From a virus (lineage: Duplodnaviria; Caudoviricetes): a stretch of 54,188 nucleotides of DNA. The stretch spans positions 1 to 54,188 of the IMG/VR virus record IMGVR_UViG_3300032770_000026, one strand, 5' to 3'. Position numbers and translations under genes: made by a program. Positions 13,592 to 33,196 of this stretch are shown here, piece after piece (position 1 is the first letter of the stretch; each line of letters starts with the position of its first letter). A model generated the notes under the pieces. It made no database searches, had not been told where the DNA came from, and was given only the letters and a program-made list of their open reading frames with translations.

Positions 13592-13732
13592 ATGGATATT
13601 CCGACTTTTGAAGAAAATAATCATCTTTGGATTGAGGAAGGGTATAAACGAAGTAAAGAATTAGGGGATGCTCGAAAAAAGGATATTGAGCAAAAAAAAG
13701 TCCCTGAAATACCCCTTGAGGAGGTAGAATAG
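13592..13732 (+). CDS. 46-aa acidic protein, candidate immunity protein
   Basis: MDIPTFEENNHLW...EEVE, starts immediately after the MuF stop (TAAATG); below the ORF-track cutoff. Confidence 0.5.
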   Translation: MDIPTFEENNHLWIEEGYKRSKELGDARKKDIEQKKVPEIPLEEVE

Positions 13733-13972
13733 ACAAGACTTTAAAGAGGCTATATCCCTTTATACGCTTGTGGATAAAACTTTATGCACAAATGCCCATG
13801 AAGGTAAAAAATAACACCTTCTCCAGAAGCATAAGTATTTGATTGCTAATAATATATAAAACAAGGGTAAAAATGATTTTATTAAATACATCAAAAATAC
13901 TTAACATATTGATTATCAGCATCTCTAGTTTAGGAATAAATTATATAAGTTACGTAACTTTATGAAGGGATT
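13727..13972 (+). repeat. Non-coding module, copy 1 (inverted relative to 32858-33102)
   Basis: 13886-13972 is 82/87 identical to the reverse complement of 32858-32944; weaker colinear similarity over the rest. Confidence 0.9.
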
Positions 13973-14354
13973 AAATGATACTAAACCAAAGATGCAGGAA
14001 TTGCTTGTCTTGGTTGACGAATGGCAAAGAACATATCATTTCGACAAGGGAATTATAGTTTTTCAGAACAAAGAAAATTTAACTAACATCCGATTCAACA
14101 ACAATAGTTTTCACGAAATAGCAAAGCATACCAGGGGGGTTGAAAATTTACCTGAAGCTTTGATGCGGCCCGACGAGATTTGGAGCTATTGGGATGATCC
14201 AAAGAAACAATTAAGCGTAAGACGTAATTACATATTGTTAGGAAGTAATGGCAACTATGTTGTTAAAACTAAGGATGGCATAGTAATAAATGCTATATTT
14301 GTAGTTGATAGTTTGATAGATAGATTCAGAAAAGGGCTTTTAATTATAAGATGA
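13962..14354 (+). CDS. Stand-alone PBECR2-like (BECR fold) nuclease domain
   Basis: LPEALMRPDEIW...RRNYI...RKGLLI resembles MuF-associated PBECR2 domains. Confidence 0.6.
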   Translation: MKGLNDTKPKMQELLVLVDEWQRTYHFDKGIIVFQNKENLTNIRFNNNSFHEIAKHTRGVENLPEALMRPDEIWSYWDDPKKQLSVRRNYILLGSNGNYVVKTKDGIVINAIFVVDSLIDRFRKGLLIIR

Positions 14355-14947
14355 AAACAATAACTGATCTTTTACGCGACATAACGACCAAATATTCTGA
14401 AATGCAGAAGTTAAAACAGAATATGCCTCGTATTATTGGTGTTGAATCGGTTAAGGTATTAAAAGAGAACTTTAAAAAACAAGGTTACGATTCTGGCACA
14501 GGCTTTACAGCATGGAAGAAACGCAGCAAAGCAACTGATACGGCTTATGATTATAACAGAACTTCCAGCTACAGGACGCCAAAGCTTCACAAAAAATCAA
14601 AATACAAAAATCCCTATAAGGGATCGGTTGTTTCTTCAAAACGTCCTATCATGGTTCAAACTGGAAACACAAGGGACGCGCTTAATTTCCAAGCAAACGG
14701 GAATAAAACAATTATTGGGATATTTCCAAGAATTGTGATGATAGGAGGTAAATCTCATGATGCTTTTGCTCATGCTAAGATATTAAATGAAGGTGGGACG
14801 GGGACATGGGGAAGGCATTCTACTAAAATACCTAAGAGACAGTTTATGCCGCGCCCTCAAGATCCACCCAATCAGGCAATCTTAAATCAAGTAAAGAAGA
14901 AATATTTTTTTGAATTGGATAAATTTATGGCTGATTGGAAAAAATAA
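14351..14947 (+). CDS. Virion morphogenesis/tail completion protein (Mu gpG, P2 gpS-like)
   Basis: ENFKKQG..WKKR, AKILNEGG, IPKRQFM. Confidence 0.8.
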   Translation: MKTITDLLRDITTKYSEMQKLKQNMPRIIGVESVKVLKENFKKQGYDSGTGFTAWKKRSKATDTAYDYNRTSSYRTPKLHKKSKYKNPYKGSVVSSKRPIMVQTGNTRDALNFQANGNKTIIGIFPRIVMIGGKSHDAFAHAKILNEGGTGTWGRHSTKIPKRQFMPRPQDPPNQAILNQVKKKYFFELDKFMADWKK

Positions 14948-14953
14948 AATATT

Positions 14954-15124
14954 ATGACAGAACTTGAAATACAAAAACGATTACGCAAACAAGATGTTTG
15001 GATTGATTGTAATCAATGCCAAGGAACAGGATATGTTTATAAATGTGAATGTTCAGAATGTAAGGGCACTGGTAAAGTAAGGAAACCTCAGCCTCACAGA
15101 AACTTTAAAAAAGTATTATTATGA
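14954..15124 (+). CDS. 56-aa protein with DnaJ-type zinc finger
   Basis: CNQCQGTG and CSECKGTG motifs; not in ORF track. Confidence 0.6.
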   Translation: MTELEIQKRLRKQDVWIDCNQCQGTGYVYKCECSECKGTGKVRKPQPHRNFKKVLL

Positions 15125-15288
15125 AAGACGAGGAATTATTAAAAGATTTATTTAATACTTTGACTGACTTTAAAGAAAATGGAACATTTTTTATATCTGC
15201 AATTGAATTAGATATGTTCTATGATGGTGAGGAATTTGAAAAAAAATTAGATAAATTACTTGAAAGAATTAAAAAAGAAATATTATGA
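15121..15288 (+). CDS. 55-aa hypothetical protein
   Basis: ATGA overlaps at both ends. Confidence 0.5.
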   Translation: MKDEELLKDLFNTLTDFKENGTFFISAIELDMFYDGEEFEKKLDKLLERIKKEIL

Positions 15289-15824
15289 AAATTACCGGAG
15301 CTATCATAAACGCACTTATGAAGGAATTAAAATATTTATTCTTTGACCGTGAAGGAACTGTGATTCTTGACACTGAATTAAAAGACGATATGTCTTATAA
15401 TTTTCCTTTGTGCATACTTGAAATTCCCGAAGCCGGAGAATCGGCAAGATTGCCAGGCAACGGCGTAACCCGTTTAGACTATGACTTTGCATTAAGAGTT
15501 TATAATTATGAACCAAACGCTTATAATGAAGATGACGATAGTTATTCAGTTACTCTTTTGGATATAATCGACATTGTACGAGTTCATTTTGAAAATGAAA
15601 CATGGATAACTCAAGAGATGATAAATCTTACCACAAATTATGCGTTCAGGTTAACTTTTGGAGGCATAAACAGAGTTGAACCATTGCAGGATGAAGAAAA
15701 ACTTATCATGGGATATAGATTAACATTTAACACAATAGCAGTTGACCAAGAGACAGATTCAACAACTGATATGACAGTAACAGCAGCAACAGAAACAGGA
15801 ACGATAGTATTTAAAGATAATTAA
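15285..15824 (+). CDS. Tail terminator/neck protein (Mu gp37-like)
   Basis: FPLCILEI, LLDIIDIV motifs; size and position. Confidence 0.55.
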   Translation: MKITGAIINALMKELKYLFFDREGTVILDTELKDDMSYNFPLCILEIPEAGESARLPGNGVTRLDYDFALRVYNYEPNAYNEDDDSYSVTLLDIIDIVRVHFENETWITQEMINLTTNYAFRLTFGGINRVEPLQDEEKLIMGYRLTFNTIAVDQETDSTTDMTVTAATETGTIVFKDN

Positions 15825-15929
15825 AATATCATTCGTGAAATTTGGTCAAAAAGAATCATACTTTTAATTATCAATAAAACGATTGATAAAATAACAATAA
15901 AGATTAAAACTGAAAAGAATATATCTGGG

Positions 15930-16148
15930 TTAATTTTCATTGCATAAAATATCATCAGTTTTTACTCCAAAGAATTTAGCAAGTCTCTCAAGGGTTACAA
16001 CTGTTTGTCCATTATGTTTGCCATCATATCGGCCTTTCTCTATGTGTTCTATTGTCCCCTTACTTACGTCAATCTCAAGGGCTAATCCGAATTGACTTAG
16101 TTTTTTACTCGTTCTTAATTCTCTAATCTTTTTACCGTTTATAGGCAT
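15930..16148 (-). CDS. XRE-family HTH transcriptional regulator
   Basis: IRELRTSKKLSQFGLA..IDVSKGTIEHIEKG. Confidence 0.9.
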   Translation of the reverse strand: MPINGKKIRELRTSKKLSQFGLALEIDVSKGTIEHIEKGRYDGKHNGQTVVTLERLAKFFGVKTDDILCNEN

Positions 16149-16149
16149 A

Positions 16150-16446
16150 TTAACTACGATTTAAACCTTGTGCTGGGGTTGAATAATAGGACATTCTCAA
16201 TAAATCATTAATATTTATTTGCTTACCTTTTGCTTTAACACATTTATTATAATGGTTAATGTAAGTATTATCAACAACCATAAGGGATGTTTTAGTCTTA
16301 GGCACTACATGATAGCGTTTGCCTGTTAGCTTGTGAAGTCTGTTGGCCTTGCGTTTAGCGTACCAAAAGGAAATGTAGTTGTGAATTGTGTTGTACTCAA
16401 AAATGATCCAGGTTTTAAATTGTTTCATAAAAATTTGGTTTGACAT
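16150..16446 (-). CDS. Hypothetical protein
   Basis: ORF coupled to the HTH gene; its first ATG lies in the late palindrome. Confidence 0.6.
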   Translation of the reverse strand: MSNQIFMKQFKTWIIFEYNTIHNYISFWYAKRKANRLHKLTGKRYHVVPKTKTSLMVVDNTYINHYNKCVKAKGKQININDLLRMSYYSTPAQGLNRS

Positions 16447-16488
16447 ACAAATGTATGCAATGAAATAGTTTAATGTATCATAATTTTG
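16441..16488 (+). promoter_or_regulatory. Late promoter 2: palindromic box plus -7 box
   Basis: TGACATACAAATGTATGCAAT at 16441; TAATTTTG at 16481. Confidence 0.8.
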
Positions 16489-16534
16489 CTGTAATTATTA
16501 ACAATAATTTGTTGATTAATAACAATACAGTATC

Positions 16535-19456
16535 ATGCCATACCCAAATTTCCATTCAGCAAGGATTCGTGAACCGGAAGAATTCGAGCGTATTGTTGTT
16601 TTAGAAACTTTACCAAATGGAATTATGATTTATGGTGGACCTTTAAAAAGTGATCCAAAGGGACCAACAAAACCGCAGGCCTACAGATTTCCAAAAGATA
16701 AATTCACAGTTGAAGAAGCAAAATCTTGGCTTAAAGAACACAATATAAAATACATTTTATTTGAGCCTGCGAAAGACACAAAAGAGAGCATGGAAACATC
16801 TGAAACAGTTAATTTGCAAGCTTCAAAAGGTGGAAAAAGAATAATCTTTACGAATGAAGTTCCAAACGATCAGGGGTCTATTATTCCTAATGATGTATAC
16901 GATTTTTCTCGATATAAATACAATCCTGTTCTCTTAAAAAAACATGACTGGCATTCTGACTCTATAGGAGATATGACCGACATTCAATTTGATGGTCAAA
17001 ATTGGTCTGGCATTCCAAAGTTTCATAAAATAACTGAAGAAAGCAAAAGAGCCGCTGAAATGTATGAAGGTGGATGGCTTAGGTCTGCTTCTGTTGGCGG
17101 AGAATCTATTTGGAAAACAACAGGTGAGTACGAAACTTATATCGACGAAAACGGGCAACAAAGAAAACGCCCAGTTTATTGGAAAGATGAAAATGGATTA
17201 ATGCGTTCTGAGTATTTTATGGTTTATGAAATATCTCTTCCTACCCTTCCAAGTAATCCAATGGCTGTTACTGAGGATGCGATAAGAGAAGCTGAAAAGC
17301 TTAATTTAAGCGTAATATATACCCCTGAAGAAATAGCAAATGTTCACAACAACATAGTAACATTAAAATCGAAATTAGAAATTCAAAATTCAAGCACAAT
17401 GGCGGAAAAGAAAGAAAAACCGAAACCTGCCGCTGAAGAAACTGCAACCGCTGCTGAAAAGTCGCAAGAAACAGAACAAACAGCAACGCAGAGTACCGAG
17501 AATATTGATAAAAGTAATCATGTGATTCTCGAAAATAAAAAATCCAGTATTCCTGGTTGGTTAAAAGATATTATTGGAATGACTGCAAAGTTTGCTCACC
17601 CGGAAGGGGAATATGGAGATGATCCAATAGTAAAGAAACCAGAAAAAAAAGGAGATGTATCCGACCAGCCCACGCCGACAGGTATGGCTGCAAAGAAAGA
17701 AGCCGAGGCTGAAAAGTCACGCAAAAACGCAGAGGACGCTGTAAAGAAAGTCAAAGAAGCAAAAGAAAAATACGAAGGTGCCGAAGGCGAAGAAAAAGAA
17801 AAATTCAAAAAGGAATACGACGAAGCATGCAAGGAAGCTGAAGAAGCTTGCCGTGAGGCTGAAGAAGCCGAAGAAGCTGCAAAAAAGGCAGCAAAAAAAG
17901 AGGCTGAAGAAGCAGAGGAAGAATCTGGTGCCTCTAAGAAAGAAGCCGAAGGAGAATCTGAGACTTCAAAAAAGGAAGCCTCTAAAAACAGTGTAAAAAT
18001 GAATGCAAAACCAGTAAAAAAGACAAGGGAAGAATTAAGCTCATTAGGGCTTCAACCTATCCCTCAACCTAAAATACATTTTGGCGAAAGTGTGACTTTC
18101 TCAAAATTAAGCGCTAAAGACAACAAAGAAGGCCAGCAAATTCTTAACCGTGTATTCAACGGGACTAAGGAAGGTAAAACGATTGACGATTACCGGATTA
18201 TTCTGAACTCTATTTTGGAAGATCCTAAATATTCAGCCATTGCTGAAAAGACCCGTTTCCATTTGAACCCCAATGAAGGTGCAATGGAAAGCCTAAGATC
18301 AGGATTGAGATTAACTTCAAAACCGAATCCAAACATCGGTGTTAATTTCAAAGAAATTGCAGCCCGTTTAAATACAGGCGTGGTTGAAGGTGTAAACTTT
18401 AAACTTGGCGCTAATCCTGAACGTAGGACTATGTTGACCACTGATGGAAACTTTAGTACTATGGATACTGTGGCTGTTGAATGGTTACCTTTTATCATAT
18501 ACAAACTATTCCCTTCTGAAAGTTGGAAAAATGAAATTCCTATTTTTGGCGTACAGGATACAGCCCGTAACCTTGGTATTATCTGGACAAATATAGCCGC
18601 TGATCCGACTATCGGACGCGGTACGGCTCCGGCAAATACGGTCGATTATACATACGATGATACCGCAGTAGGTTTAAAACTTACTCCTTATTATACTCCT
18701 ACAATCAGATGGACTCCAATTCACATGCATCAATTACGCTATGATCAACAGGCTTCAGGCTGGGCTCAAACACTTGCTAAACTAGAAGCGATCATGGGTG
18801 ATGATATGTTATATACTCTTGCCGCTGGTGTTATTGCAAATTCTCAGCCAATCGTTAAGACACGCGGTCCAGTTGATTCTACGCAAACACAAACATTCAT
18901 AGTAGGTACAGGAAGTAATGGTATTGATAAATTCTATTTTAATTCTTCATTTGCTGGTACTCTTACCAAACCTGGGTTCAATGACATAATGGCTATTGAG
19001 CAAATTTATGACTATTTGAATTTCAATCTGGAAAAAGAACGTCCTGTATTGGTAGTTGATTCAATTATGAAATCCTATATTAAACAGGATAAGCAAACTC
19101 AAAGCATGTTAACTAGATGGATCAATGATAATGGTTCTGAAGTTCAGAAAATAAGTAACACATTATTCCATCCACGTTCGCGTGTGGTTGCTTATGATCC
19201 CGCAGGTGGAACGGCAATTGACACTAACGCTTCTGGCGCTGTTATTCCAGTTACTACTCAAAGTGCTGCTCTTTCTTTTGTAAGCTCACAGGTTGGTATT
19301 GGCCTTGGTTTAATAGACGTGTTCTTTATTCAAGATCCAGCCAATTACGGATTCAAAATGTCTATGGACTTAAGAATCGGCATCAGGGCTTTACGTAGCG
19401 ATTATACAGGCGTTTCGCTATACGTTTACGATAGCATAGCTCAATCAGGACAATAA
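16535..19456 (+). CDS. Prohead protease-scaffold-major capsid polyprotein
   Basis: NPVLLKKH, LRSASVGG, EISLPTLPSNP (HK97-type protease); E/K/A-rich coiled coil; ~340-aa C-terminal region with capsid-like features and no other capsid candidate. Confidence 0.8.
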   Translation: MPYPNFHSARIREPEEFERIVVLETLPNGIMIYGGPLKSDPKGPTKPQAYRFPKDKFTVEEAKSWLKEHNIKYILFEPAKDTKESMETSETVNLQASKGGKRIIFTNEVPNDQGSIIPNDVYDFSRYKYNPVLLKKHDWHSDSIGDMTDIQFDGQNWSGIPKFHKITEESKRAAEMYEGGWLRSASVGGESIWKTTGEYETYIDENGQQRKRPVYWKDENGLMRSEYFMVYEISLPTLPSNPMAVTEDAIREAEKLNLSVIYTPEEIANVHNNIVTLKSKLEIQNSSTMAEKKEKPKPAAEETATAAEKSQETEQTATQSTENIDKSNHVILENKKSSIPGWLKDIIGMTAKFAHPEGEYGDDPIVKKPEKKGDVSDQPTPTGMAAKKEAEAEKSRKNAEDAVKKVKEAKEKYEGAEGEEKEKFKKEYDEACKEAEEACREAEEAEEAAKKAAKKEAEEAEEESGASKKEAEGESETSKKEASKNSVKMNAKPVKKTREELSSLGLQPIPQPKIHFGESVTFSKLSAKDNKEGQQILNRVFNGTKEGKTIDDYRIILNSILEDPKYSAIAEKTRFHLNPNEGAMESLRSGLRLTSKPNPNIGVNFKEIAARLNTGVVEGVNFKLGANPERRTMLTTDGNFSTMDTVAVEWLPFIIYKLFPSESWKNEIPIFGVQDTARNLGIIWTNIAADPTIGRGTAPANTVDYTYDDTAVGLKLTPYYTPTIRWTPIHMHQLRYDQQASGWAQTLAKLEAIMGDDMLYTLAAGVIANSQPIVKTRGPVDSTQTQTFIVGTGSNGIDKFYFNSSFAGTLTKPGFNDIMAIEQIYDYLNFNLEKERPVLVVDSIMKSYIKQDKQTQSMLTRWINDNGSEVQKISNTLFHPRSRVVAYDPAGGTAIDTNASGAVIPVTTQSAALSFVSSQVGIGLGLIDVFFIQDPANYGFKMSMDLRIGIRALRSDYTGVSLYVYDSIAQSGQ

Positions 19457-19463
19457 TATAAAG

Positions 19464-19490
19464 CCCCGACTCCGGTCGGGGTATAACTTT
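19464..19490 (+). terminator. Hairpin after the capsid gene
   Basis: CCCCGAC-TCCG-GTCGGGG with a weak T tail. Confidence 0.5.
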
Positions 19491-19504
19491 AAAAATTAAG
19501 TAAA

Positions 19505-20182
19505 ATGAAAAAGATATTTATATTAGGTTTTTTATTCGTGAGTCTTGGTTTAATGGCTCAATTGCCTGTATCCACAAAAGTAAAAACCCTTTCTCCGGCG
19601 TTGGTGCCTGGCGGGATTACGACTCTTAATTCATCAAAATATGATACTCTAAAAACTGGCGATACTTTATTTTATAAGGTATTGATTAATCATGATGAAA
19701 TTGGGTATCCTTATTTGTCTCTACTTTTAAAAAGAGTAGCTGGTGCTGATACCGCAACGGTAACCGCAACTTTTTGGCAATCTGTTGATGGGTCTACCAA
19801 TTGGCAGCAAGTTAAATACTTATCCAAAGTAACCACTTTTTTGTTTGATACGACGAAATTTGCAGGAAGTACAACTGGCACAAGTACATTATTGTTTGAT
19901 ACGACTAAATATTCAGCGGGAGTTTACCGACATGATTTTTATTCGGCAACTTTAACCGGAAAGGGAAGACAACTTTATTCAGCTACAGGAACTTCAGCAA
20001 ATACCGAAACAGCTTGGACGGTTTCTCTTACAAAAGCTATAATGAAAGGTGGAACCACTGTCAGTTTTTGGCGAAACAATGCAGCTTTTGAAAGTCAATA
20101 TTTAGGTATTCGTTTTATTTCAGCTGTAAGCTCAGGTTTTAAAGGAATTTATTACGGATCAGTAAGATATGATAATAAATAA
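19505..20182 (+). CDS. Beta-rich, decoration-like protein with signal peptide
   Basis: MKKIFILGFLFVSLGLMA-Q; directly after the capsid gene. Confidence 0.55.
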   Translation: MKKIFILGFLFVSLGLMAQLPVSTKVKTLSPALVPGGITTLNSSKYDTLKTGDTLFYKVLINHDEIGYPYLSLLLKRVAGADTATVTATFWQSVDGSTNWQQVKYLSKVTTFLFDTTKFAGSTTGTSTLLFDTTKYSAGVYRHDFYSATLTGKGRQLYSATGTSANTETAWTVSLTKAIMKGGTTVSFWRNNAAFESQYLGIRFISAVSSGFKGIYYGSVRYDNK

Positions 20183-20185
20183 ACT

Positions 20186-20641
20186 ATGGCTAAGAAAGAA
20201 AAAACAAATGTAAGTGTTACGAACACTATTTTTAATGTAAGACCGATACACGTTGCACGTATAAAGGCTTATTTGGATGCTGGTTATGATAAAGTAATCA
20301 TTCATGGTGACGGTATGATGTTTTGCGGGAAAACCGGCCAAACATTTGACGGTAAAACAATGGAATTTGGTTCGGATCATCACAAAGAATTTAATTCCGG
20401 TGTAGCAGAAATCAACAAAAATGAGCTTATTGCAAGAGCTAAATTTAGGGCTATTTATGTCAAAGGCGGAGAATTACCTTCAACCCCTGAAGAAGTCATA
20501 CAAGAATTCTATGATAACCAAGCCCGTGAAATGCAAAGCGCTACCAAACCCGAACTTGCAACCAACTTTAAAAATGCCGTAACAGTTCCTGACCCTGTTC
20601 AGCCTAAAGTAATTAAGGCTTCTAAACAGGAAGAAGTTTAA
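20186..20641 (+). CDS. Hypothetical head/neck-region protein
   Basis: ORF between the capsid and sheath genes. Confidence 0.6.
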   Translation: MAKKEKTNVSVTNTIFNVRPIHVARIKAYLDAGYDKVIIHGDGMMFCGKTGQTFDGKTMEFGSDHHKEFNSGVAEINKNELIARAKFRAIYVKGGELPSTPEEVIQEFYDNQAREMQSATKPELATNFKNAVTVPDPVQPKVIKASKQEEV

Positions 20642-20647
20642 CCAAAT

Positions 20648-20670
20648 GGCTGGTCCAACGGCCAGCCTTT
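20648..20670 (+). terminator. Hairpin before the sheath gene
   Basis: GGCTGGTC-CAAC-GGCCAGCC-TTT. Confidence 0.5.
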
Positions 20671-20683
20671 AATATTTAAAATA

Positions 20684-22243
20684 ATGGAACATATTATAAG
20701 TACAACCATTTCAAATACACCTTCGGGAATACCGGGGTCGTTTGATGGTGTTATGATGATGATTGTAAAAGGCGTTGCGACAACTACTGGTACAACGGCA
20801 CTTGTTTTGGATACGGCTTATCTGGGTAATAAACTTGATGATTTTGTAACCGGATTAGGGATAACACCTGATTATGATTACGTAAACAGTCTTTCGGTTT
20901 ATCAACAGGTAAGTGAATTCTATACTGAGGCAGGAGACGGGGCTTACTTGTGGTTAGTTGTAACAGCGACTACTACAAACTTTGCAACTTATTGCGCTAT
21001 AGCAACCGGAACAACTTTTATGAATCTTATCAGGGGCACTAATTTAACCGATCCTGATATGCGGGTTAAAATGTTAGGATTAGGATATAATCCGCCTCAA
21101 ACCCGGCAAAGTGCAGCTGATTTCCCTTCAGATGTTACTTCTACGATTCCTTTATTGCAGCTCACACTAGCGCAATTAGCCGAAGAAGGATACGCATTAT
21201 CTGCAATAATTGACGGTGAAAATATGTCTTCGACTGCCACAGCTTCGACGCTTCAAACAATGGCAAATAAGAAAGCCTCTTCGATTTCAATGTGTATTAC
21301 AGGGTCTAAGCCTAACGGGGTAGCTTCAATTGGTGCCGCTCTTGGGAGGTTTGCAAGAATTTCTTTAGGTCATGGATTCGGAGAAGTTGACGACGGCCCT
21401 ACATCGGTTCAAAAAGCTTATTGGACAAATGGGGTAGCCGTTCCGATTGTAGGTTCTACAATATCTCAGGGCACAGATTTAACAGCTGGACATTCATATA
21501 TGGTTGTTCTAGGACCTGTAACCTATAATTCAACTGTTTATTCAGTTGGTGAAATATTTACTGTAATCGTAGGAACTTTAGGATTTACCGGAACAGGAAC
21601 GACTGTTGTTGATTTAACAACAACCGGAACTGTAGTAGTAGGTCATACTTATATGGTGCTTTTTGGTCCTATAACTTACAATAGTGTTGTTTACGGAACC
21701 GGAACAACTTTCACAGCTGTAACAAATCATACAACATTTACCGGTGGAATAGTATTTGAATTCACCGCTCAAGATGTTTCTAAACTTTTCCCGGCTGACG
21801 TAAATACTCTCGGAACCAAACAGTATATGTTTTTACGGACTTGGTTTCAACAGTCTGGTCTATATTGGAATGACGGTGCAACTTGCGATTTATCTACGAC
21901 TCCACTTTCTACCCAGGAATTCAACAGGGTAGGTAACGCATTAAGTGCTGATTTGTTAGAATTTTTAATTACAAATCTAATGGGTAAAAACGTTCCTGTT
22001 GATACGAAGACCGGGCTTGTTGCGCGTTCTTTCACAGCTGCTAAAGAAGAAGATTTTAGCCGTACATACTTAGAGCCTTTGATTGTTCCCAAGGCACCGA
22101 ATACTGTCGGGGATATATCAGCTGGAAGTCTTTCACTCGTAGGCACTCCAAACGGAGCTAATACAGTTGACTGGACTTATACGCTTACGATTAACGGAAC
22201 CCCGATTACCGGGTCTGCTACTGGAACTGTAACCTTTGTTTAA
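20684..22243 (+). CDS. Tail sheath protein (DUF2586-like) with inserted repeat domains
   Basis: QVSEFY..AGDGAYLW, GAALGR, YMFLRT..GLYWND motifs. Confidence 0.8.
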   Translation: MEHIISTTISNTPSGIPGSFDGVMMMIVKGVATTTGTTALVLDTAYLGNKLDDFVTGLGITPDYDYVNSLSVYQQVSEFYTEAGDGAYLWLVVTATTTNFATYCAIATGTTFMNLIRGTNLTDPDMRVKMLGLGYNPPQTRQSAADFPSDVTSTIPLLQLTLAQLAEEGYALSAIIDGENMSSTATASTLQTMANKKASSISMCITGSKPNGVASIGAALGRFARISLGHGFGEVDDGPTSVQKAYWTNGVAVPIVGSTISQGTDLTAGHSYMVVLGPVTYNSTVYSVGEIFTVIVGTLGFTGTGTTVVDLTTTGTVVVGHTYMVLFGPITYNSVVYGTGTTFTAVTNHTTFTGGIVFEFTAQDVSKLFPADVNTLGTKQYMFLRTWFQQSGLYWNDGATCDLSTTPLSTQEFNRVGNALSADLLEFLITNLMGKNVPVDTKTGLVARSFTAAKEEDFSRTYLEPLIVPKAPNTVGDISAGSLSLVGTPNGANTVDWTYTLTINGTPITGSATGTVTFV

Positions 22244-22254
22244 AATTTAAAGAT

Positions 22255-22680: not shown

Positions 22681-22696
22681 ATAAATTATTTTTATT

Positions 22697-25525: not shown

Positions 25526-25526
25526 T

Positions 25527-25967: not shown

Positions 25968-26188
25968 ATGCAAAATTAAAGGCAACAGAAATTGTTTGCG
26001 ATTTTTTAGAATCATTTAAAAGTTTAACTTTTTTTGATATTAATAAACATGAGATTGAATGTGAAATAGTTGCAAAACATAGAGCATATTATTTTATAAA
26101 ACAAAATATACTACCAACAATAGGTAGTGAGGCTGATCTTAAATTTTGGAAAAATGTTCTTGAAGAAATCAATAAAATAAATTTGTAA
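25964..26188 (+). CDS. Hypothetical protein
   Basis: Coupled ORF ending FWKNVLEEINKI; looks like an inserted non-structural gene. Confidence 0.5.
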   Translation: MNAKLKATEIVCDFLESFKSLTFFDINKHEIECEIVAKHRAYYFIKQNILPTIGSEADLKFWKNVLEEINKINL

Positions 26189-27429
26189 TGTATTTCAACG
26201 CACATTGTAAAGTCATAATAAATGATCAAACACTTGAGACTGTTGTAAGTGTTGAGACTCATAACGATTCTAATCATATAGGCTCGTATTGTGACATTGT
26301 GCTGCCTTTGAACTCAAGAATAGAATACAAAAGCGAAACAAACCAAGCGCCAAAACCAGACAATCAAGATCCTCAGATAGATTATAGTCAGGTAAATAAC
26401 GGATATATAACGGCTCCTACTCGATACCTTTTTAATACCGGAGATCATATTATCGTCAAAGCTAAATACGATGGCTATGAACAGGTAGACGGGGCGGAGT
26501 CCGATGGCTATTTACCGATTTTTGACGGGTTTATTTATGATTTCTACGAAAGTACGCCGGTTAAAATCAAGTGTTTAGACTATATATACTGGTTTAACAT
26601 AGGTATTTATGGAAGTAAAATCATAACAGTTATAAAGAATCTAAAACCTGGAAAGAAACCACCAAAAAAACCTAAAACGAGTACTGGCCAGGGGGTATCT
26701 TTTAAAAGTACAACATTTAAAGAAATCCTACAGGACATTTGCGACACAGTGAGTTATAATATAGCCGTCTGGAATGACGAAAATGATACAGATTACCCGG
26801 AAGTTTCTTTAAGCGAGCCTATTTTTGATATGAATCTTGTTAATATATCTTTTATTCAAATGTCCCCGGCTGCCGTTCTTGAATGGTTCAAAAAAGAGCT
26901 CGGTTTGAATATTACTTTAATGGGAACTAAGCTATATGCTAATTTAGCAAGTAATACAACCGGAACGGTAATCTTACAAACAGATAAAAACATTATTGCT
27001 TCAGGGCTTCAAACGACAAATTTAAAACATTTCAAAACAAAAAAATCAAAAGGTTCAAATTCTATATTCTTAAGAATCAAGGTAAAGGCTTATTTTTTGC
27101 GGGATGACGGGACAAAAGATAGTATAGAGGTAGGTGATCCGAACGGCCAACTAAGGGAGGTATTTTTCTATAACGTCAAGAGAGATGAAAAACTATATAC
27201 TCAAATGGCAAACGAGGCCATTCAAAAATATCATCAGGACCGTTATACCGGTGAAGTCGAAACATATTTGTACCCTTTTTGCGATCTTTTCTGGAAGGTA
27301 CAATATTTTGATGTCCGGTATCCTGAAAGAAATGGATCGTACGTTGTTACGATGTTGCAACAATCATTAAATGAACACGGGTTTCACAAAAAATTAAAGC
27401 TGGCATTTTTAGACGATCAAAATGGATAA
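26188..27429 (+). CDS. Baseplate hub protein (Mu gp44/P2 gpD-like)
   Basis: CDIVLP, IFDGFI, PVKIKCLD, PERNGSY motifs. Confidence 0.75.
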   Translation: MYFNAHCKVIINDQTLETVVSVETHNDSNHIGSYCDIVLPLNSRIEYKSETNQAPKPDNQDPQIDYSQVNNGYITAPTRYLFNTGDHIIVKAKYDGYEQVDGAESDGYLPIFDGFIYDFYESTPVKIKCLDYIYWFNIGIYGSKIITVIKNLKPGKKPPKKPKTSTGQGVSFKSTTFKEILQDICDTVSYNIAVWNDENDTDYPEVSLSEPIFDMNLVNISFIQMSPAAVLEWFKKELGLNITLMGTKLYANLASNTTGTVILQTDKNIIASGLQTTNLKHFKTKKSKGSNSIFLRIKVKAYFLRDDGTKDSIEVGDPNGQLREVFFYNVKRDEKLYTQMANEAIQKYHQDRYTGEVETYLYPFCDLFWKVQYFDVRYPERNGSYVVTMLQQSLNEHGFHKKLKLAFLDDQNG

Positions 27430-28018
27430 CGAGGCAGCAGAAAAAATAATTCATGACGGTTTGATTCGTTGGGGACGGTCTCTAATAAGGGCTTCGATTG
27501 TCACCGAGGGAGTTATTGTCTCAGTTGACGAAACTACTTATACTTGTGTTGTTGCTTTACAGACTACTAATCCTGACGGATCAGTAACAAATACAGAGAT
27601 TAATAATGTGCCTTTAAAAGTGCTTATAGGCTCCCAGGCTTCGCTTATTGAAATACCAAAAGTTAACACGACATGTACGCTTTGTTTTCGAGATAATAAT
27701 ATTCAAAGGCCTCAGCTTTACCAAGTTCATGAATGCGATAAGATTTTAATAAAAATTGGTAATACAACGTTACAGGCTGATACTAATGGGTTTGTGTTTA
27801 ATGGAGGCGATAAAGGAATGGTCAAGGCCGATGAACTTAAAACTCAAAGCGAAAAGGATAAAGCTATTTTAGATGGAATTTTACAAGTATTACAAACGCC
27901 CGTTAATGAACCTGGCAATGGAGCACCTTCTGCTTTTCAAGCTGCTTTAATAGCTGTAATAGGGACAAAACAAAGTGGAGATTGGACAAGTTTAGAAAAC
28001 GATAAAATTAAACAATAA
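27422..28018 (+). CDS. Baseplate spike protein (gpV/Mu gp45-like)
   Basis: OB-fold-like N-terminus, IPKVNT, FNGG motif. Confidence 0.65.
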   Translation: MDNEAAEKIIHDGLIRWGRSLIRASIVTEGVIVSVDETTYTCVVALQTTNPDGSVTNTEINNVPLKVLIGSQASLIEIPKVNTTCTLCFRDNNIQRPQLYQVHECDKILIKIGNTTLQADTNGFVFNGGDKGMVKADELKTQSEKDKAILDGILQVLQTPVNEPGNGAPSAFQAALIAVIGTKQSGDWTSLENDKIKQ

Positions 28019-28323
28019 TGGGAGACTTGCAATATAATCCACAAACGAGAGATCTTGTTATCACAAAAGGGGACTTTACGATGACTAATAACCCAAGTGT
28101 GCAGAATGGAGCTATAATCCGTGATGCTCATTGTTTTAGCCTTAGATTTCCGGTTTATGGCATCGGATTACAACGGGTTATTAATGCTCCTTTACAGGTT
28201 ATTAATTATGAAATGAACCGTTGGGTAACCCAGGTAAAAAGTGATGGTGCAAAAAAAGCAACTTTTACAGCTGAGATTGTAAATAAAACGGCTATTGTGA
28301 ATAACACAGTTTCGTATATATGA
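28018..28323 (+). CDS. Baseplate wedge/sheath initiator (gp25/Mu gp46-like)
   Basis: DLVI..GDF, FPVYGIGL. Confidence 0.6.
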   Translation: MGDLQYNPQTRDLVITKGDFTMTNNPSVQNGAIIRDAHCFSLRFPVYGIGLQRVINAPLQVINYEMNRWVTQVKSDGAKKATFTAEIVNKTAIVNNTVSYI

Positions 28324-28973
28324 TTTATGTAACAAAATATGGTGAGTCTATTCGTGATGTGTCTATCAATGCCTGCGGATCAATACAGGCATGGGAGCCT
28401 ATTCTTAATTTAAACTTATATACCGAATGGACGCCGACGCTTACAGCTGGTATGATATTAGAAGTTCCTGACGTTATTGATTCTGATGTGCAAAAAACAC
28501 AACAGCTTTATCCTTCTAATAACAATCCTAATATACCTAATCTTGATACTTTATTAACAGCTATTACTGATAATTTAGACAGTGCAACGATAAATATATT
28601 TACTCCGCCAGGTGTAACGCAATCGTTTATAAACTATTATACAGTACGGGAAAACGAGACTATAAAAGATGTTTGTTTAAACTCAACGGGCACAATAGAC
28701 AATTGGGAATCGATTTTAAATGCCAATGATTTTACCGAATGGGTACCTACTTTAACGGCCGGTCAAAAAATTGTTATACCCCCAGATGCTGAAATTCAAA
28801 ATAATGTGCTTTTTGTAACAACGAAATACCCTTCAAACAATGGACCTGATATTGCTAATTTTGATACATTGGTTAGTGATTTCATAAGCAATTTTAGTAA
28901 TTATTGGATATTACAGTCATCATACTGGGATGATTTGGGGCAGTGGATTGATATGGCTGAATGGTTAGATTAA
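28320..28973 (+). CDS. Tandem LysM-like (gpX-type) baseplate protein
   Basis: Two ~100-aa repeats: YVTKYGESIRDV...LTAG and YTVRENETIKDV...LTAGQ. Confidence 0.7.
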   Translation: MIYVTKYGESIRDVSINACGSIQAWEPILNLNLYTEWTPTLTAGMILEVPDVIDSDVQKTQQLYPSNNNPNIPNLDTLLTAITDNLDSATINIFTPPGVTQSFINYYTVRENETIKDVCLNSTGTIDNWESILNANDFTEWVPTLTAGQKIVIPPDAEIQNNVLFVTTKYPSNNGPDIANFDTLVSDFISNFSNYWILQSSYWDDLGQWIDMAEWLD

Positions 28974-28983
28974 AAACAAAGAT

Positions 28984-29358
28984 ATGTCAAGAATAAATAT
29001 AAATAATGGAGATTCAGGGTTAACGGTTAGGAATGCCTTAAACGCTATGACTTCAGAGTTATACGGAAGCCTTTCGAATGTTCCTATTAAATTGGTAGGC
29101 CAAACCGGGGCGTTTACTCAGGCAATATTAGCCGATACTTGGGTCGAAAGAATAAGTATAACGCCTGCATCTGGTACGCCGGATATTAAAATCGGAACTT
29201 CACTACACGGTACAGAGCTTTGCCCTGTGACTTCTATAGATAATTATTTGCCCGTGCTTATACAGCAATATTTTACCGATGCCAGTACCTTATATTTTGA
29301 GACTACGGGCGGAACCGTAAATGTAAGAATTGACAATTTAAATCCATACGCACTATGA
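28984..29358 (+). CDS. Small appendage-like protein sharing a domain with the 9555 protein
   Basis: NGDSGL.VRNALN fibre-attachment-like N-terminus; IKIGT...QYFTDASTLYF. Confidence 0.55.
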   Translation: MSRININNGDSGLTVRNALNAMTSELYGSLSNVPIKLVGQTGAFTQAILADTWVERISITPASGTPDIKIGTSLHGTELCPVTSIDNYLPVLIQQYFTDASTLYFETTGGTVNVRIDNLNPYAL

Positions 29359-30128
29359 GCGCTTATTCTACGATAATTTCCTTTATACAATCAGCAATGC
29401 CTGAGCTTAATAGCACAAGCGTTGCCGGGATTGTTAATAAAATGGCCGAGGCCAACGGGCAAGTAATAGATAATACTTTAGCGGAGTTAACCAATACAGA
29501 GACTATTATTACTCAAACTATAACCGATAAAAACGACGGTCATTCGGGATCGTATATTGCCAATGCTTTAGCTTACCAAGAAGGTGATAACCTTTCTATT
29601 GATGCGAACGGTAATTATTACTATGCTGTTATTGATACAACAAAGCAAATCATAAAGCAAGCTGCATTTAAAGAAGTAATAAGTGGGTCAAGTGCTTCAC
29701 TTGTGCTAAAAGTGGCTTATATTGATCCTAATACCGGACTTTTAGCAGCCTTACCGACAAATAAAAAAACCGCCTTTGATAGTTACTTCAGATTGTTTGA
29801 AAAACCAGGTCTACCGGTAACAAAAATTTCTAATGATCCGAATACATTAGCTTTTGATGCTCTTATAACTTATGATCCCACTTATGATTATACTATTCTT
29901 CAAACAAATGTTGCTGCTGCGTTAATTACTTTCCGGGATAACTTCACTTTTAATGGGACATTCAGGAATTACTATTTGGAAAACTATTTAGTTACAAACG
30001 TGCCTGGAGTTAACGCAGTTTATCTATCAAATACGACTATTGATGCGGTACCTTTTTCAGGGGATACTGTGCTTTCAGCTGGGTACTTTAATTTTGGAAC
30101 TGTAAACGTAACTTATGAATCAATTTAA
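29355..30128 (+). CDS. Baseplate wedge protein (J-like)
   Basis: Y..NALAYQ.GD, LKVA, FNG, VPGV, AGYF. Confidence 0.65.
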   Translation: MSAYSTIISFIQSAMPELNSTSVAGIVNKMAEANGQVIDNTLAELTNTETIITQTITDKNDGHSGSYIANALAYQEGDNLSIDANGNYYYAVIDTTKQIIKQAAFKEVISGSSASLVLKVAYIDPNTGLLAALPTNKKTAFDSYFRLFEKPGLPVTKISNDPNTLAFDALITYDPTYDYTILQTNVAAALITFRDNFTFNGTFRNYYLENYLVTNVPGVNAVYLSNTTIDAVPFSGDTVLSAGYFNFGTVNVTYESI

Positions 30129-30627
30129 GCAAATATCATATCCCAAAATGCTATATGAATGTTTGGGTGCTTACCACTCGGTAAACTCAGCCGGAGCGTT
30201 ATCTTATTTATACAAGTTCTGTCTGTGTTGTGTCTATGTGCTTCAAACCCCGTTTAATAATTTTGACTTATGGAGAATTAAAAAACTTCTTATCGCTAAT
30301 TGTCGCTGGGAAATAGGCCAATTAACAAATGTCCTTAACATGCTTTACGATCCTTCACAGAAACGAATAACCATAGGGCAAAACTCAATAGTTGGATGCT
30401 TTGTTTTTAACATAGACGAAGGCGAAAGCTCTACTTTTGTTATGAATATAGACGAAGATGAAAGTACGGTCTTTGTTCCAAACATCGACGAGGCAATAAA
30501 CAGTGCAATGGTTACATTTTATGTACCTGCTTCAATCTATACTAATACTCCGACTTTAACGTCTTTAATCGCTGATATTGAACAAATAAGATGGAAGGGT
30601 ATTTTATACCAAATTGTGTCACTCTAA
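30115..30627 (+). CDS. Baseplate wedge protein 2
   Basis: LTNVLNMLYDP..KRITI; three internal FVxNIDE repeats. Confidence 0.55.
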   Translation: MNQFKQISYPKMLYECLGAYHSVNSAGALSYLYKFCLCCVYVLQTPFNNFDLWRIKKLLIANCRWEIGQLTNVLNMLYDPSQKRITIGQNSIVGCFVFNIDEGESSTFVMNIDEDESTVFVPNIDEAINSAMVTFYVPASIYTNTPTLTSLIADIEQIRWKGILYQIVSL

Positions 30628-30637
30628 AACTTAAAAT

Positions 30638-31633
30638 ATGTCTAATAAAATTCAATTTCCAAACAATAGATTAACGCCTCCGGCTTTAGGCAAACCGGTA
30701 TTTGCGACAGATATTCAAAATAATACTGAAAATTTGCTTGAGGCAATGAATATCCTTTTAGGATTACCAGCTTCAGGAGGTACGGCTTTTGCAATACTAT
30801 CAGGTCTTACTTATAATGAAAGCGAAGGGACCTATGACCCTGGTTATGTTTATATGAATGGAGTTATATACTACAGTGCTGATATAATATATGATCCATG
30901 TTACCTTGTACCAAATGTAACTGATACTGAATCTAAATTGCATAATCCGGATGGAAATTCTTATAATACTTATCGTATCTATTATGCGATTTCAAGCTCG
31001 TCCCCATCTGGGGGAATGCCTCAATTTACAGGTTCTATGGATCAATATCGGTTAAGTATAGTTTTAGCTAAATCACAAGCAATCGCAACTGCGGCTGCGG
31101 ATGCAACTTCAAAAGCTAATACGGCGCAATCTAATGCTGAAGAATATACTGATAATGCAATTTCAGGATTAGGAACAGCGGCAACTAAAGATGTAGGATT
31201 AGCTGCAAACAACGTTTTGCAAAGCGATGGAATGAGTAGGGATAAATTTACAATGACAAGTGATCAGTATGATAAGTTGGTTACTGTTGAAGATGATTTT
31301 GTATGTCGGAGAGCAACAGGGATGAAACAACCAAAAATTATTGAGATTACAAATTATAATATGAATACTGGTGGAGCTGTATCTGAAATTTCTATTGCAC
31401 ATGGATTGACTTATTCAAAAATAATAGGATGCCGAGTTATTATCGAAAATGACGAAGAGACATTAAAAAATGTAATTTCAGGGACTAATGGCAATGGAAG
31501 TTCGACAGCCTGTTATTATGAAGTAAATGGAACTAATATTCGCATAATTAATGAAATTGGTAGTACATATTGCAGTTCCTCTTATGATGGCACAGGACAT
31601 AGAGGATGGATTATTATAGATAATATAGCTTAA
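30638..31633 (+). CDS. Tail fibre protein
   Basis: AILSG..PGYVYMNG N-terminus, DATSKANTAQ coil, GLGTAATKDVG fibre motif, IAHGL C-terminal domain. Confidence 0.7.
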   Translation: MSNKIQFPNNRLTPPALGKPVFATDIQNNTENLLEAMNILLGLPASGGTAFAILSGLTYNESEGTYDPGYVYMNGVIYYSADIIYDPCYLVPNVTDTESKLHNPDGNSYNTYRIYYAISSSSPSGGMPQFTGSMDQYRLSIVLAKSQAIATAAADATSKANTAQSNAEEYTDNAISGLGTAATKDVGLAANNVLQSDGMSRDKFTMTSDQYDKLVTVEDDFVCRRATGMKQPKIIEITNYNMNTGGAVSEISIAHGLTYSKIIGCRVIIENDEETLKNVISGTNGNGSSTACYYEVNGTNIRIINEIGSTYCSSSYDGTGHRGWIIIDNIA

Positions 31634-32565
31634 TTTGAAAAATGATTAGCTTCATTTTCAAAATAGTTATTTGAATAACCATTAACTAAATCATTTATAG
31701 CGTAAGTTGAAAGAAAATTTAGGTTTATATTGAGATGATTTAATATCTTGTTATTTGAATTTGGAGTAAATAAATCAAATTCAGTATATTGTAAAGCATG
31801 AATAAATTCATGTTTTAAATTAGCCTTAAAATCGGAATTGGAATATTTTAAAGGTTTAAAATAAGGATCATTATTTTTGAAAGCTGTTATTGTATTTCCC
31901 AATGATTGGCCAACTGTTAAGCCTTCAGTAATTGGTTTATGAGATGAAATAAACACTATTGATCCAGTTAATAATGTTTGTTTAATATTGAATGAATATC
32001 CTTTTGAAAAACTTAAATAAGCTATATATCCTATTATTGCAGGATCAATTTTAATTGATATTTTATGAAAACTAGCTTGAAAATTAAAACAATAAAGTGT
32101 TAAATATAAATTAGATGTAATTGGCTTATTATTATATCCATTGATTATAATTGATTGACCTATTGAATGAATTAATCTTGAAGTTAGCAAAAAATCATTT
32201 TGTTTTACCGAATATTTGGCCGTATAGTTAATAGCACCTCCAATAGCGCCCTTATATAATCCCTTAATCATTGCATGAGTGAATTTTTCTCCTTTTTTAT
32301 GATGAAATCCCGAACCAATTCCGCTAACTAAACTCGAAGAAATGACATTATAAGCAGCATATTTTAAGTCGTTTTGTGCCTGACAAATAACTGGAATCAT
32401 AAAGAATAAAACCAATATTTTTAGATTCTTGTTAATAAACTTTTCAACAAGCTTAGATGCATGCTTTGTTAAGGTAGTCTTATTTTCCTTGCAGAACTTT
32501 TTATAAAGTTTGTGATTTTCAGGCGAAAGCCTTACATTAAATTTTGGTAATTTGTTCTTGTACAT
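31630..32565 (-). CDS. Ribbon-helix-helix domain fused to a membrane/exported HExxH zincin-like domain
   Basis: KFNVRLSPENHKLYKKFCKENKTTLT; ILVLFFMIPVICQA-Q; KHEFIHALQY...FENEAN. Confidence 0.6.
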   Translation of the reverse strand: MYKNKLPKFNVRLSPENHKLYKKFCKENKTTLTKHASKLVEKFINKNLKILVLFFMIPVICQAQNDLKYAAYNVISSSLVSGIGSGFHHKKGEKFTHAMIKGLYKGAIGGAINYTAKYSVKQNDFLLTSRLIHSIGQSIIINGYNNKPITSNLYLTLYCFNFQASFHKISIKIDPAIIGYIAYLSFSKGYSFNIKQTLLTGSIVFISSHKPITEGLTVGQSLGNTITAFKNNDPYFKPLKYSNSDFKANLKHEFIHALQYTEFDLFTPNSNNKILNHLNINLNFLSTYAINDLVNGYSNNYFENEANHFSN

Positions 32566-32575
32566 GACAGTAAAA

Positions 32576-32761
32576 TTAAAATGAAATAGCAAACTGTGAT
32601 CCTATTTTCATGAGTTTTGCGCCTGTTTGCGCTGAAAAATAGGTTAAAATCTTTTCTTCCGACCAACTATTTAATATAGAATCAACTACTTTATCAAGTA
32701 TTGATTGTTCTGTGCTTTGTGGCCTGTAACACATTTCTATTATTTCTCTTTTGCTGTACAT
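32576..32761 (-). CDS. Hypothetical protein
   Basis: First gene of the reverse-strand pair. Confidence 0.55.
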   Translation of the reverse strand: MYSKREIIEMCYRPQSTEQSILDKVVDSILNSWSEEKILTYFSAQTGAKLMKIGSQFAISF

Positions 32762-32792
32762 ATCGTGTTGTTTTTCTTTACTATATTATACG

Positions 32793-32808
32793 AAAGTTAC
32801 GTAACTTT
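32793..32808. promoter_or_regulatory. Perfect 16-bp palindrome over the -7 box of the reverse-strand promoter
   Basis: AAAGTTACGTAACTTT; minus strand reads TTG-N20-TAACTTTC. Confidence 0.6.
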
Positions 32809-32857
32809 GTTGTAATAAACAACATGTTTTAGAGCATAAGTGTTTTTATATTAAAGG

Positions 32858-33102
32858 AATCCCCTCATAAAGTTACGTAACTTATACAATTTATTCCTAA
32901 ACTAGAGATATTGATAATCAATATGTTAAGTGTTTTTGATGTATAAAAATATAACAAAAAATATAGTTTTTATAACTAATTGATTTACTGTTAGATTATC
33001 TTCTGGAGAGGGCTATATTTAAAATCAACCTTGGCATTTGGGCGTAAAACTTATTCTGAGACCGTGTAGAGAATTTATAGACCTTGAAAGGCTTGTTTAA
33101 TC
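32858..33102 (-). repeat. Non-coding module, copy 2
   Basis: Inverted copy of 13727-13972; AAGTTACGTAACTT at 32870-32883. Confidence 0.9.
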
Positions 33103-33133
33103 AAAGGCATAGGGTTATAAAATTAGACATTTT

Positions 33134-33181
33134 TGACATACAAATGTATGCAATGAATTCCTAGTGAGAACAGTAATTTTG
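33134..33181 (+). promoter_or_regulatory. Late promoter 3: palindromic box plus -7 box
   Basis: TGACATACAAATGTATGCAAT at 33134; TAATTTTG at 33174. Confidence 0.8.
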
Positions 33182-33196
33182 TTCAAATATTTTACT

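Follow-up and report, generated by a model that had tools for sequence, protein, structure and literature searches.

An inverted pair of intergenic modules with the anatomy of a duplicated promoter-operator cassette in a tailed-phage genome

A module of about 245 bp is found twice, in inverted orientation, in the phage genome IMGVR_UViG_3300032770_000026 (IMG/VR; Caudoviricetes), a linear record of 54,188 bp with an estimated completeness of 88% and a GC content of 33.7%. The whole of this stretch was analysed and is called the window below. The two-copy inverted module is real, and both copies point inward, with the same polarity relative to the genes that they head. On balance, the module is probably a duplicated promoter-operator cassette and not a site-specific inversion switch. 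A first-pass annotation of this DNA had offered three explanations, i.e., a recombination site, a duplicated promoter/operator and an origin-like element. The second of them gives the best fit, in view of the common polarity, a third palindrome located before a gene, and the lack of an open reading frame (ORF) or RNA structure in the module. We infer the promoter activity, the transcription start, the operator function and the existence of a binding protein from the sequence. The module can be described as a real, regulatory-looking cassette in two copies, of an ordinary kind for a phage, and its function is read from its anatomy.

The inverted match of 82/87 letters between the two cores, as annotated earlier, was reproduced. 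The inverted-repeat search returned arms of 87 nt, 94% complementary, and no other inverted pair in the window comes close in length (the runner-up is 54 nt at 70%), and BLAST of the genome against itself gave an E value of 3e-34 for the same repeat. The proposed extension of the similarity to 246 and 245 bp was also supported. The flanks, 13727-13885 and the reverse complement of 32945-33102, aligned with a local score of 31 across about 108 bp, while the dinucleotide shuffles had a mean of 10.3 (sd 1.5) and a maximum of 19, and none of 1000 reached 31. None of 1082 other real windows of the genome reached this score either, with a maximum of 17. The module falls into two tiers of identity: the core is 94% alike in the two copies and the distal part about 65%, and an AT-rich stretch with indels lies in between. 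Within the distal part, identical islands of 8-11 bases are embedded in the otherwise ~65% stretch. The core of copy 1 includes 11 nt of the annotated reading frame for the PBECR2 nuclease, and copy 2 lies within a divergent region of 402 bp between a minus-strand cassette and gene 33164. Separately, an 11-nt direct repeat, TAAGTGTTTTT, was noticed at 32837-32847 and 32927-32937, which brackets most of the core of copy 2.

The module does not appear to encode a product. The two copies share no peptide or ORF, and stop codons occur in all six frames of both. No match was obtained in Rfam at the gathering score, and no tRNA was detected in the module. The fold z-scores of the cores and the distal parts on both strands ranged from -1.23 to +1.85, indicating no stable structure; the two-sequence consensus folds were weak (-12 and -16 kcal/mol over 256 columns), and neither module contains a terminator-like hairpin. 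Because the frames are closed, the fold z-scores are unremarkable and Rfam and tRNA matches are lacking, the module more likely functions at the level of DNA.

The palindrome AAGTTACGTAACTT had been reported in both copies. Both positions were correct (sites 1 and 2 in Table 1), but a third exact copy, site 3, had been overlooked. Three exact copies in the window compare with 0.43 expected, and none of 100 shuffles reached three. All of them are intergenic and upstream of genes. Site 3 is contained in the region upstream of the gene for a 61-amino acid (aa) protein, designated unit A. This region shows a weak colinear similarity to the core (AAAAACACTT .. AACATnTTGnTTAT .. palindrome), and 34 of 2000 shuffles reach the score obtained upstream of the palindrome. 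At every site the gene-proximal half of the palindrome reads TAACTTT(A/C), which resembles a -7 box. In a flavobacterium, the sigma-A -7 box TAnnTTTG is located at -12 to -5, and the median 5' untranslated region is 24 nt, according to the available portion of PMC9723704. The -7-like boxes, TAACTTTA at sites 1 and 2 and TAACTTTC at site 3, have five of the six specified bases of TAnnTTTG, and site 3 has the arrangement TTG-N20-TAACTTTC, i.e., a spacer of 20 nt. The distance from the end of the palindrome to an ATG is 31, 32 and 32 nt at sites 1, 2 and 3, respectively. The first of these ATGs, at 13992, is in frame with PBECR2, the second opens a two-codon frame behind copy 2, and the third, at 32761, begins the 61-aa gene. 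The start context of the other candidate, the ATG at 13962 inside the core, scored -2.17 against a mean of -2.48 for random ATGs, which is at the 10th percentile among 86 genes. Thus, a dyad-symmetric palindrome of 14 bp is repeated and overlaps a -7-like box, as expected for an operator from the sequence. The motif TTACGTAA occurs seven times in the window, four of them within the intergenic ~9%, and one such core lies 9 nt upstream of the start of the helix-turn-helix (HTH) gene 45885-46067.

From these features, the following arrangement can be proposed. A promoter with a palindromic operator would be present twice, each heading a small inward operon regulated apart from the long plus-strand late operons. 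The palindrome AAGTTACGTAACTT(T) would be the site of a dimeric DNA-binding protein, for which four small HTH proteins of the phage are candidates. Its gene-proximal half, TAACTTT, may double as the -7 box of a Bacteroidota-type promoter (TAnnTTTG), and since the operator overlaps this box, a bound protein would block the promoter. The start of transcription would be placed a few bases further on, at the point where the two copies cease to be 94% identical, and the real start codons would be those located 31-32 nt past the palindrome, ATG 13992 for PBECR2 and ATG 32761 for the 61-aa protein. Accessory sites would be located in the distal ~108 bp with its islands. Copy 2 may form tandem promoters with unit A for the minus-strand cassette, which is out of reach of the plus-strand operons and therefore needs its own promoter.

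Several observations weigh against this proposal. The core is uniformly 94% identical over 87 contiguous bases, which is easier to reconcile with recent copying or gene conversion than with selection acting on individual sites. The final G of TAnnTTTG is A or C in the boxes, so that none is a full match to the Bacteroidota element, and sites 1 and 2 have TTTAG at a 21-nt spacer, with no TTG at 17-23 nt. The start context of ATG 13992 (-0.43) is slightly above that of ATG 13962. Copy 1 has a perfect TAnnTTTG on its minus strand, at 13899-13892. No match to the module was found by blastn in 50,697 phage records, and the exact 37-mer pattern of the core has 0 matches in IMG/VR. The comparison with relatives covers two, an IMG/VR locus (L003) and the contigs of one metagenome run (X3), and in X3 the minus-strand cassette occurs without the module, so that copy 2 is dispensable there. 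Finally, the Bacteroidota-type host is an inferred one. It is plausible because the gene starts lack a Shine-Dalgarno signal, A is strongly enriched at positions -11/-12 and -3 before the start codons, perfect TAnnTTTG boxes head several intergenic regions, and the nearest Atlas clusters of a 311-aa protein behind copy 2 consist of unnamed proteins, mostly from Bacteroidota. The Shine-Dalgarno-like 4-mers were found upstream of 7 of 89 genes, compared with 9.1 +/- 2.9 at random positions.

The minus-strand box of copy 1 raises the possibility of an outward promoter in the core, whose transcript, a leader or a small RNA, would span the distal ~108 bp and its conserved islands. At copy 1 it would run antisense to the end of MuF, and at copy 2 it would head for gene 33164. 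The alignment fold contains a compensatory pair, CCTTC/GAAGG versus CCCTC/GAGGG. However, the corresponding box in copy 2 is TGTTTTTG, in which the invariant A is lost, the RNA structure is neither conserved nor stable by the values given above, a terminator is lacking, and gene 33164 has its own late-type promoter. We consider an outward promoter quite unlikely. The compensatory pair joins the distal island to the letters just past the ATG in the core (13817-13821/13964-13968 and 33008-33012/32862-32866), and with two sequences it may be a chance occurrence.

The module could also be a functionless relic, in which a past duplication or recombination was followed by neutral decay and by recent gene conversion of the core. 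Consistent with this, only two copies are present, none was found in the other phages searched, copy 2 is missing in a relative that keeps the cassette, and the core includes the 11 nt of the PBECR2 frame. On the other side, a third exact palindrome stands outside the duplicated stretch, before a gene and with matching spacing to the start codon, and the 8-11-base identical islands in the ~65% stretch form the pattern expected of constrained sites. A relic is unlikely in our estimation.

The region was compared over 13400-33300 with contigs from three wetland-metagenome runs (X1, X2 and X3) that contain it; the depth of the X1 and X2 contigs is about 8-11, and contigs drop rare variants. The depth of X3 is low over 13400-14063, the surroundings of copy 1. 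One X1 contig extends from a point 2.8 kb ahead of 13400 to 22673 with zero differences, and the X2 contigs cover 13400-29514 and 29486-33300. Copy 1 is thus bridged by X1 and X2 contigs and copy 2 by an X2 contig, and only the reference arrangement was observed. These assemblies were made independently of that in IMG/VR, although the samples are probably shared. Among the contig joints listed, none changes strand at the cores, although rare isomers are invisible to contigs. In another X1 contig, about 18 nt from around 31936-31953 and about 18 nt from around 15263-15281 are linked by 12 letters, which was taken as a chance match in a contig of another organism.

These data bear on two forms of recombination. 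In the first, the inverted cores would be a substrate for homologous recombination, driven by the phage exonuclease and NinB/Orf or by the host, and the 19-kb block would exist as two isomers. The core, 87 bp at 94%, exceeds the patches of <50 bp that are sufficient for T4 recombination in the available text of PMC2839356, and both a PD-(D/E)XK exonuclease and a mediator of the NinB/Orf type are among the products of this phage. Inversion would be tolerable because both copies are inward, and each cassette would stay behind a module copy. The two-tier identity is the outcome expected of gene conversion between the cores. The finding of contigs in the reference arrangement only, with no strand-changing joint at the cores among those listed, counts against isomers, weakly at this depth, and we regard their existence as unlikely. 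A role as a recombinational hot spot would hold whether or not the module is a promoter.

In the second form, the module would be a site for site-specific recombination, with a palindromic crossover and bending-protein sites in the style of Gin/gix, Cin/cix or the invertible promoters of Bacteroides. The inverted orientation, the perfect 14-bp palindrome and the matches to the IHF consensus WATCAANNNNTTR in both copies suggested this. The earlier statement that no recombinase is encoded nearby is correct as far as integrases and invertases are concerned: among 87 ORFs of this 88% complete record, scans with Pfam and PHROGs detected no integrase, invertase, resolvase or transposase, and the only related matches were to a zinc-ribbon domain of the IS1595 type and to a homing endonuclease of the GIY-YIG family. 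The solitary third palindrome, 76 bp from the second, is needed by no inversion system, and the assemblies have a single arrangement. As for the IHF sites, each copy was said to have two in opposite orientation. The number is right, but the opposite orientation applies to copy 2 only (32916, plus; 32973, minus); both matches of copy 1 are on the minus strand (13832 and 13902), so that the two copies differ in the orientation of these sites. The window contains 19 matches against 9.55 expected, and therefore the motif is weakly informative. A site-specific recombination site is very improbable.

An origin-like element, composed of a DnaA box and an AT-rich stretch and served by the DnaA-C-domain protein and the primase-helicase of the phage, is equally hard to credit. 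A perfect DnaA box, TTATCCACA, occupies 13769-13777 and is faced by a box with one mismatch, the centre of the module is rich in A and T, and a Bac_DnaA_C protein is encoded. However, DnaA boxes with up to one mismatch number 16 in the window against 18.4 expected, neither the perfect box nor the pair is conserved in copy 2, and no switch of GC skew occurs at either copy. The proposal of an origin-like element thus found no support. A small transposable element such as a MITE was also considered and rejected, as terminal inverted repeats and a target-site duplication common to the copies were not found; an 11-nt pair at 13754/13961 is present in copy 1 only, and the replacement in X3 by 45 letters is not a clean empty site.

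This replacement in X3, of 294 bp including all of copy 2, rests on one contig of 872 nt at depth 6, which matches 32633-32839 and then 33134-33300. The relative keeps the 61-aa gene, palindrome site 3 and the late-type promoter of gene 33164, without copy 2. The aligned stretch 32633-32839 spans site 3, and among the differences listed, none falls within 32728-32839. The left breakpoint (32839/32840) is inside the first TAAGTGTTTTT, and microhomology could have been involved in the exchange. In L003, the MuF protein is 73% identical, and the similarity ends at 13585, 142 bp before copy 1. In the corresponding region of L003 (5441-7300), MuF continues for at least 190 more residues as a long C-terminal extension with a HELGH metalloprotease-like motif. 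In the present phage, MuF ends with the conserved part, followed by the 46-aa ORF, copy 1 of the module and a separate PBECR2 gene (12203-14354 in total). The module behaves as a discrete exchangeable unit, judged from the 45-for-294 replacement in X3, the end of the L003 similarity at 13585 and the different extension of the L003 MuF. The explanation by a recombination site, which would invert the block or bring in each cargo, survives in part. Breakpoints of gene content do occur, at copy 2 in X3 and at 13585 in L003. Inversion found no support in the gene content (integrases and invertases) or in the contigs, and since the cargo of copy 2 is present in X3 without the module, the module did not bring that cargo.

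Returning to the promoter-operator cassette, its copies would have arisen via duplication or recombinational exchange at variable spots of the genome, as for the PeSL cassettes described below. Because the distal part is just ~65% identical, recent copying of all 245 bp from copy 1 does not fit. Two possibilities are considered: an old duplication with copy 2 lost in the relative, or acquisition of copy 2 from a diverged cassette of another phage. In both cases the core would have been kept alike by constraint or by gene conversion, and its uniform identity favours conversion or recent copying.

Searches by protein for relatives in IMG/VR gave one for MuF (L003) and 0 for the 578-aa, 320-aa and 198-aa proteins. 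The 18-mer of the palindrome and TATG had two loci in IMG/VR, both unrelated, one in a high-GC record and one inside a coding region. The 15-mer palindrome had 64 loci, none related to the window by blastn or tblastx; by eye they are mostly coding or chance sites, and ORFs were examined for two of them (L016 and L035). Two of these loci were noted in low-GC phages that are unrelated to the present one and use the same core. In G001 (L072 1501-1575), three TTACGTAAC sites are clustered within 75 bp, intergenic and upstream of a 107-aa ORF. In G002 (L073 1501-1740), a complete genome of 47.9 kb, two full palindromes are 225 bp apart, each 15 nt ahead of the ATG of a minus-strand ORF, and the first is just beyond the 3' end of a putative large serine recombinase gene, as read from its sequence. 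Such palindromes may be a recurrent type of operator.

The closest described analogue, by resemblance, appears to be the PeSL cassettes of T4-type phages. In the available portions of the reports (PMC2839356, PMC4122927), these are conserved promoter cassettes of ~100 bp upstream of orphan genes, which mark indels between close relatives and recombine mutually; about 50 are present per genome, mostly as direct repeats, with a sigma-70 consensus and a stable GC-rich stem-loop terminator. Like a PeSL as so described, the module is conserved, lies between genes and immediately precedes accessory or orphan genes in variable parts of the genome, with breakpoints of indels or replacements at the cassette, as known from one contig and one partial relative. 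Unlike the PeSLs of those accounts, it has two copies and one degenerate unit, in inverted orientation, with a perfect palindrome and in a different type of host; it has no stable hairpin or terminator, and its promoter activity is predicted. A wider interpretation is that the module is a self-contained, exchangeable Bacteroidota-phage counterpart of PeSL which is moved by recombination from one variable locus to another, that its inverted copies also permit a flip of the 19-kb block into two isomers by phage recombination, and that the palindrome is both an operator and a -7 element for either strand; we give this combination a low probability.

Other known systems are less similar. The lambda OL/PL and OR/PR units point outward from the repressor gene and have three operators each. 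They share with the present module a related promoter-operator unit placed twice in inverted orientation, with palindromic operators overlapping the promoter, whereas the units here are inward, around 19 kb of structural genes. The invertible segments of Mu (Gin/gix), P1 (Cin/cix) and the Bacteroides promoters have sites of ~20-35 bp, an adjacent recombinase gene and both orientations in the population. The likeness lies in a DNA segment bounded by inverted repeats, in phages or Bacteroidota. Short sites, an adjacent recombinase and two orientations were none of them seen here, in contigs at depth 8-11; the inverted repeats are 87-245 bp long. The stoperators of cluster A and the start-associated sequences of cluster K mycobacteriophages are asymmetric 13-bp sites in tens of copies. 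These are likewise short exact motifs repeated at gene starts, bound by a regulator in the mycobacteriophages, while the present motif is a 14-16-bp palindrome found three times inside a larger duplicated module.

Regulatory cassettes that are repeated in a genome illustrate how phages wire accessory genes into their expression programme; the genes concerned here are that of a PBECR2 nuclease associated with MuF and a low-GC gene for a metalloprotease-like membrane protein. Such cassettes also mark the spots where mosaic genomes break and rejoin during evolution. To our knowledge, the promoters and operators of environmental Bacteroidota phages are almost unstudied. The three-site 14-bp operator candidate, together with a three-site 26-nt late-promoter motif described below, can serve as a starting point for reporter and binding assays. 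Flipping of the structural block by the inverted copies, should it occur, would give a tailed phage an unusual form of genome isomerism; no finding here calls for it.

Table 1. Positions of the module, the associated sites and the genes discussed in the text (window coordinates).
Feature	Position	Strand	Remark
Module copy 1	13727-13972	+	246 bp; faces plus-strand operon 13962-15824
Distal block of copy 1	13727-13834	+	~108 bp, ~65% identical to copy 2; islands ACAAGnCTTT, CAAATGCC, CTCTCCAGAAG
Core of copy 1	13886-13972	+	87 bp; putative promoter, about -80 to transcription start region
Module copy 2	32858-33102	-	245 bp; faces minus-strand cassette 32761-31630
Core of copy 2	32858-32944	-	internal ATG opens just a 5-codon frame (MRGFL*)
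Palindrome site 1	13947-13960	.	right half TAACTTTA resembles -7 box
Palindrome site 2	32870-32883	.	in core of copy 2
Palindrome site 3	32794-32807		solitary, upstream of 61-aa gene; 76 bp from site 2
Unit A	32762-32857	-	upstream region of 61-aa gene, contains site 3
Copy 1 operon	13962-15824	+	PBECR2 nuclease, 198 aa, 56 aa, 55 aa, 179 aa
PBECR2 nuclease-domain protein	13962/13992-14354	+	PF18810, E 8.1e-8
Cassette behind copy 2 and unit A	31630-32761	-	61-aa and 311-aa proteins
Late-type promoter of gene 33164	33132-33181	+	26-nt motif, 16 nt, TAATTTTG; kept in X3 right after the indel
Stretch replaced in X3	32840-33133	.	294 bp including all of copy 2, replaced by 45 other letters
Replication and methylase genes	60-7100	+
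Bac_DnaA_C domain protein	6569-7102		phage also has primase-helicase
Small and large terminase	7385-9267	+
Mu-type portal	10626-12083	+
MuF-like head protein	12203-13591	+	Pfam/PHROGs scans
46-aa ORF	13592-13732	+	ends at left edge of copy 1
Minus-strand island	15930-16446	-	98-aa protein and 72-aa HTH protein
Structural block	16535-31633	+	sheath-like DUF2586 protein, tape measure, baseplate hub
Small HTH proteins (four)	15930-16148 (-), 42362-42598, 43190-43369, 45885-46067
PD-(D/E)XK exonuclease	49818-50585		Pfam/PHROGs scans
NinB/Orf-type mediator	52579-53022		Pfam/PHROGs scans

Nearly all genes of the phage are on the plus strand, and the minus strand is restricted to two islands (15930-16446 and 31630-32761). 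The structural block is followed by more tail and lysis genes and then by an early region with many small HTH proteins. The DNA enclosed by the two copies had been called the head-tail block, which is not correct, as the small and large terminase, portal and MuF genes are upstream of copy 1.

Both copies were also said to adjoin accessory cargo. Small gene sets are indeed present at both, but the copy 1 operon, which comes after MuF and the 46-aa ORF, includes a gene for a neck/tail-completion-like protein (the 198-aa product; PHROG 26, E 7.6e-9), so that this operon is cargo in part only. Its 56-aa protein is zinc-finger-like, and the 55-aa and 179-aa proteins have no assigned function. MuF proteins often have variable C-terminal toxin domains, and PBECR domains are known from such fusions. 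A variable 'toxin slot' behind MuF was noted in this context. When the PBECR2 protein was compared with longer proteins, none scored, and a fused MuF-PBECR2 ancestor found no support in that comparison.

The minus-strand cassette has a GC content of 26.9% against 33.7% for the genome. No family match was obtained for its 61-aa and 311-aa proteins. The latter was listed as an ORF of 320 aa, for which ATG 32565 is a better start, giving 311 aa; it has a hydrophobic segment (signal- or anchor-like), a HEFIH motif and weak metallopeptidase-like structural neighbours. The 61-aa protein gave no usable feature match, and its structural neighbours were weak, over short stretches. The first ~45 residues of the 311-aa protein give the impression of a ribbon-helix-helix DNA-binding motif, with no Pfam match at E up to 5, and a search with this N-terminal region returned no homologue besides itself. 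If this impression is true, the 311-aa protein would be a membrane-tethered candidate for the binder of the palindrome.

A different motif, TTTGACATACAAATGTATGCAATGAA, is present three times, always on the plus strand, at 9490-9515, 16439-16464 and 33132-33157. The motif contains the palindrome CATACAAATGTATG, and its 20-mer core recurs without a mismatch at the three sites, where 0.01 would be expected. A perfect TAnnTTTG box is located 16 nt past each TTTGACATACAAATGTATGCAATGAA, ahead of genes 9537, 16535 and 33164. From its sequence, the motif looks like a phage-specific class of late promoter with an activator or sigma site. The 20-mer had 0 loci in IMG/VR and two in JGI metagenomes, neither of them similar to the window. 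A resemblance of 32883-32899 to the 3' part of the motif (14/17) was at chance level by a rough estimate and was discarded.

In the first minus-strand island, the 98-aa ORF is followed by the gene for the 72-aa XRE-type HTH protein (PF12844, E 4.7e-9), and the two diverge from the late-type promoter of gene 16535 in an arrangement that resembles a toxin-antitoxin pair. A free-standing gene for a GIY-YIG/NUMOD3 homing endonuclease is located at 22697-23317, between two structural genes. The region is absent in some contigs, since X1 skips 22673-23318 and X3 skips 22746-23315, and the population seems to include genomes with and without the gene.

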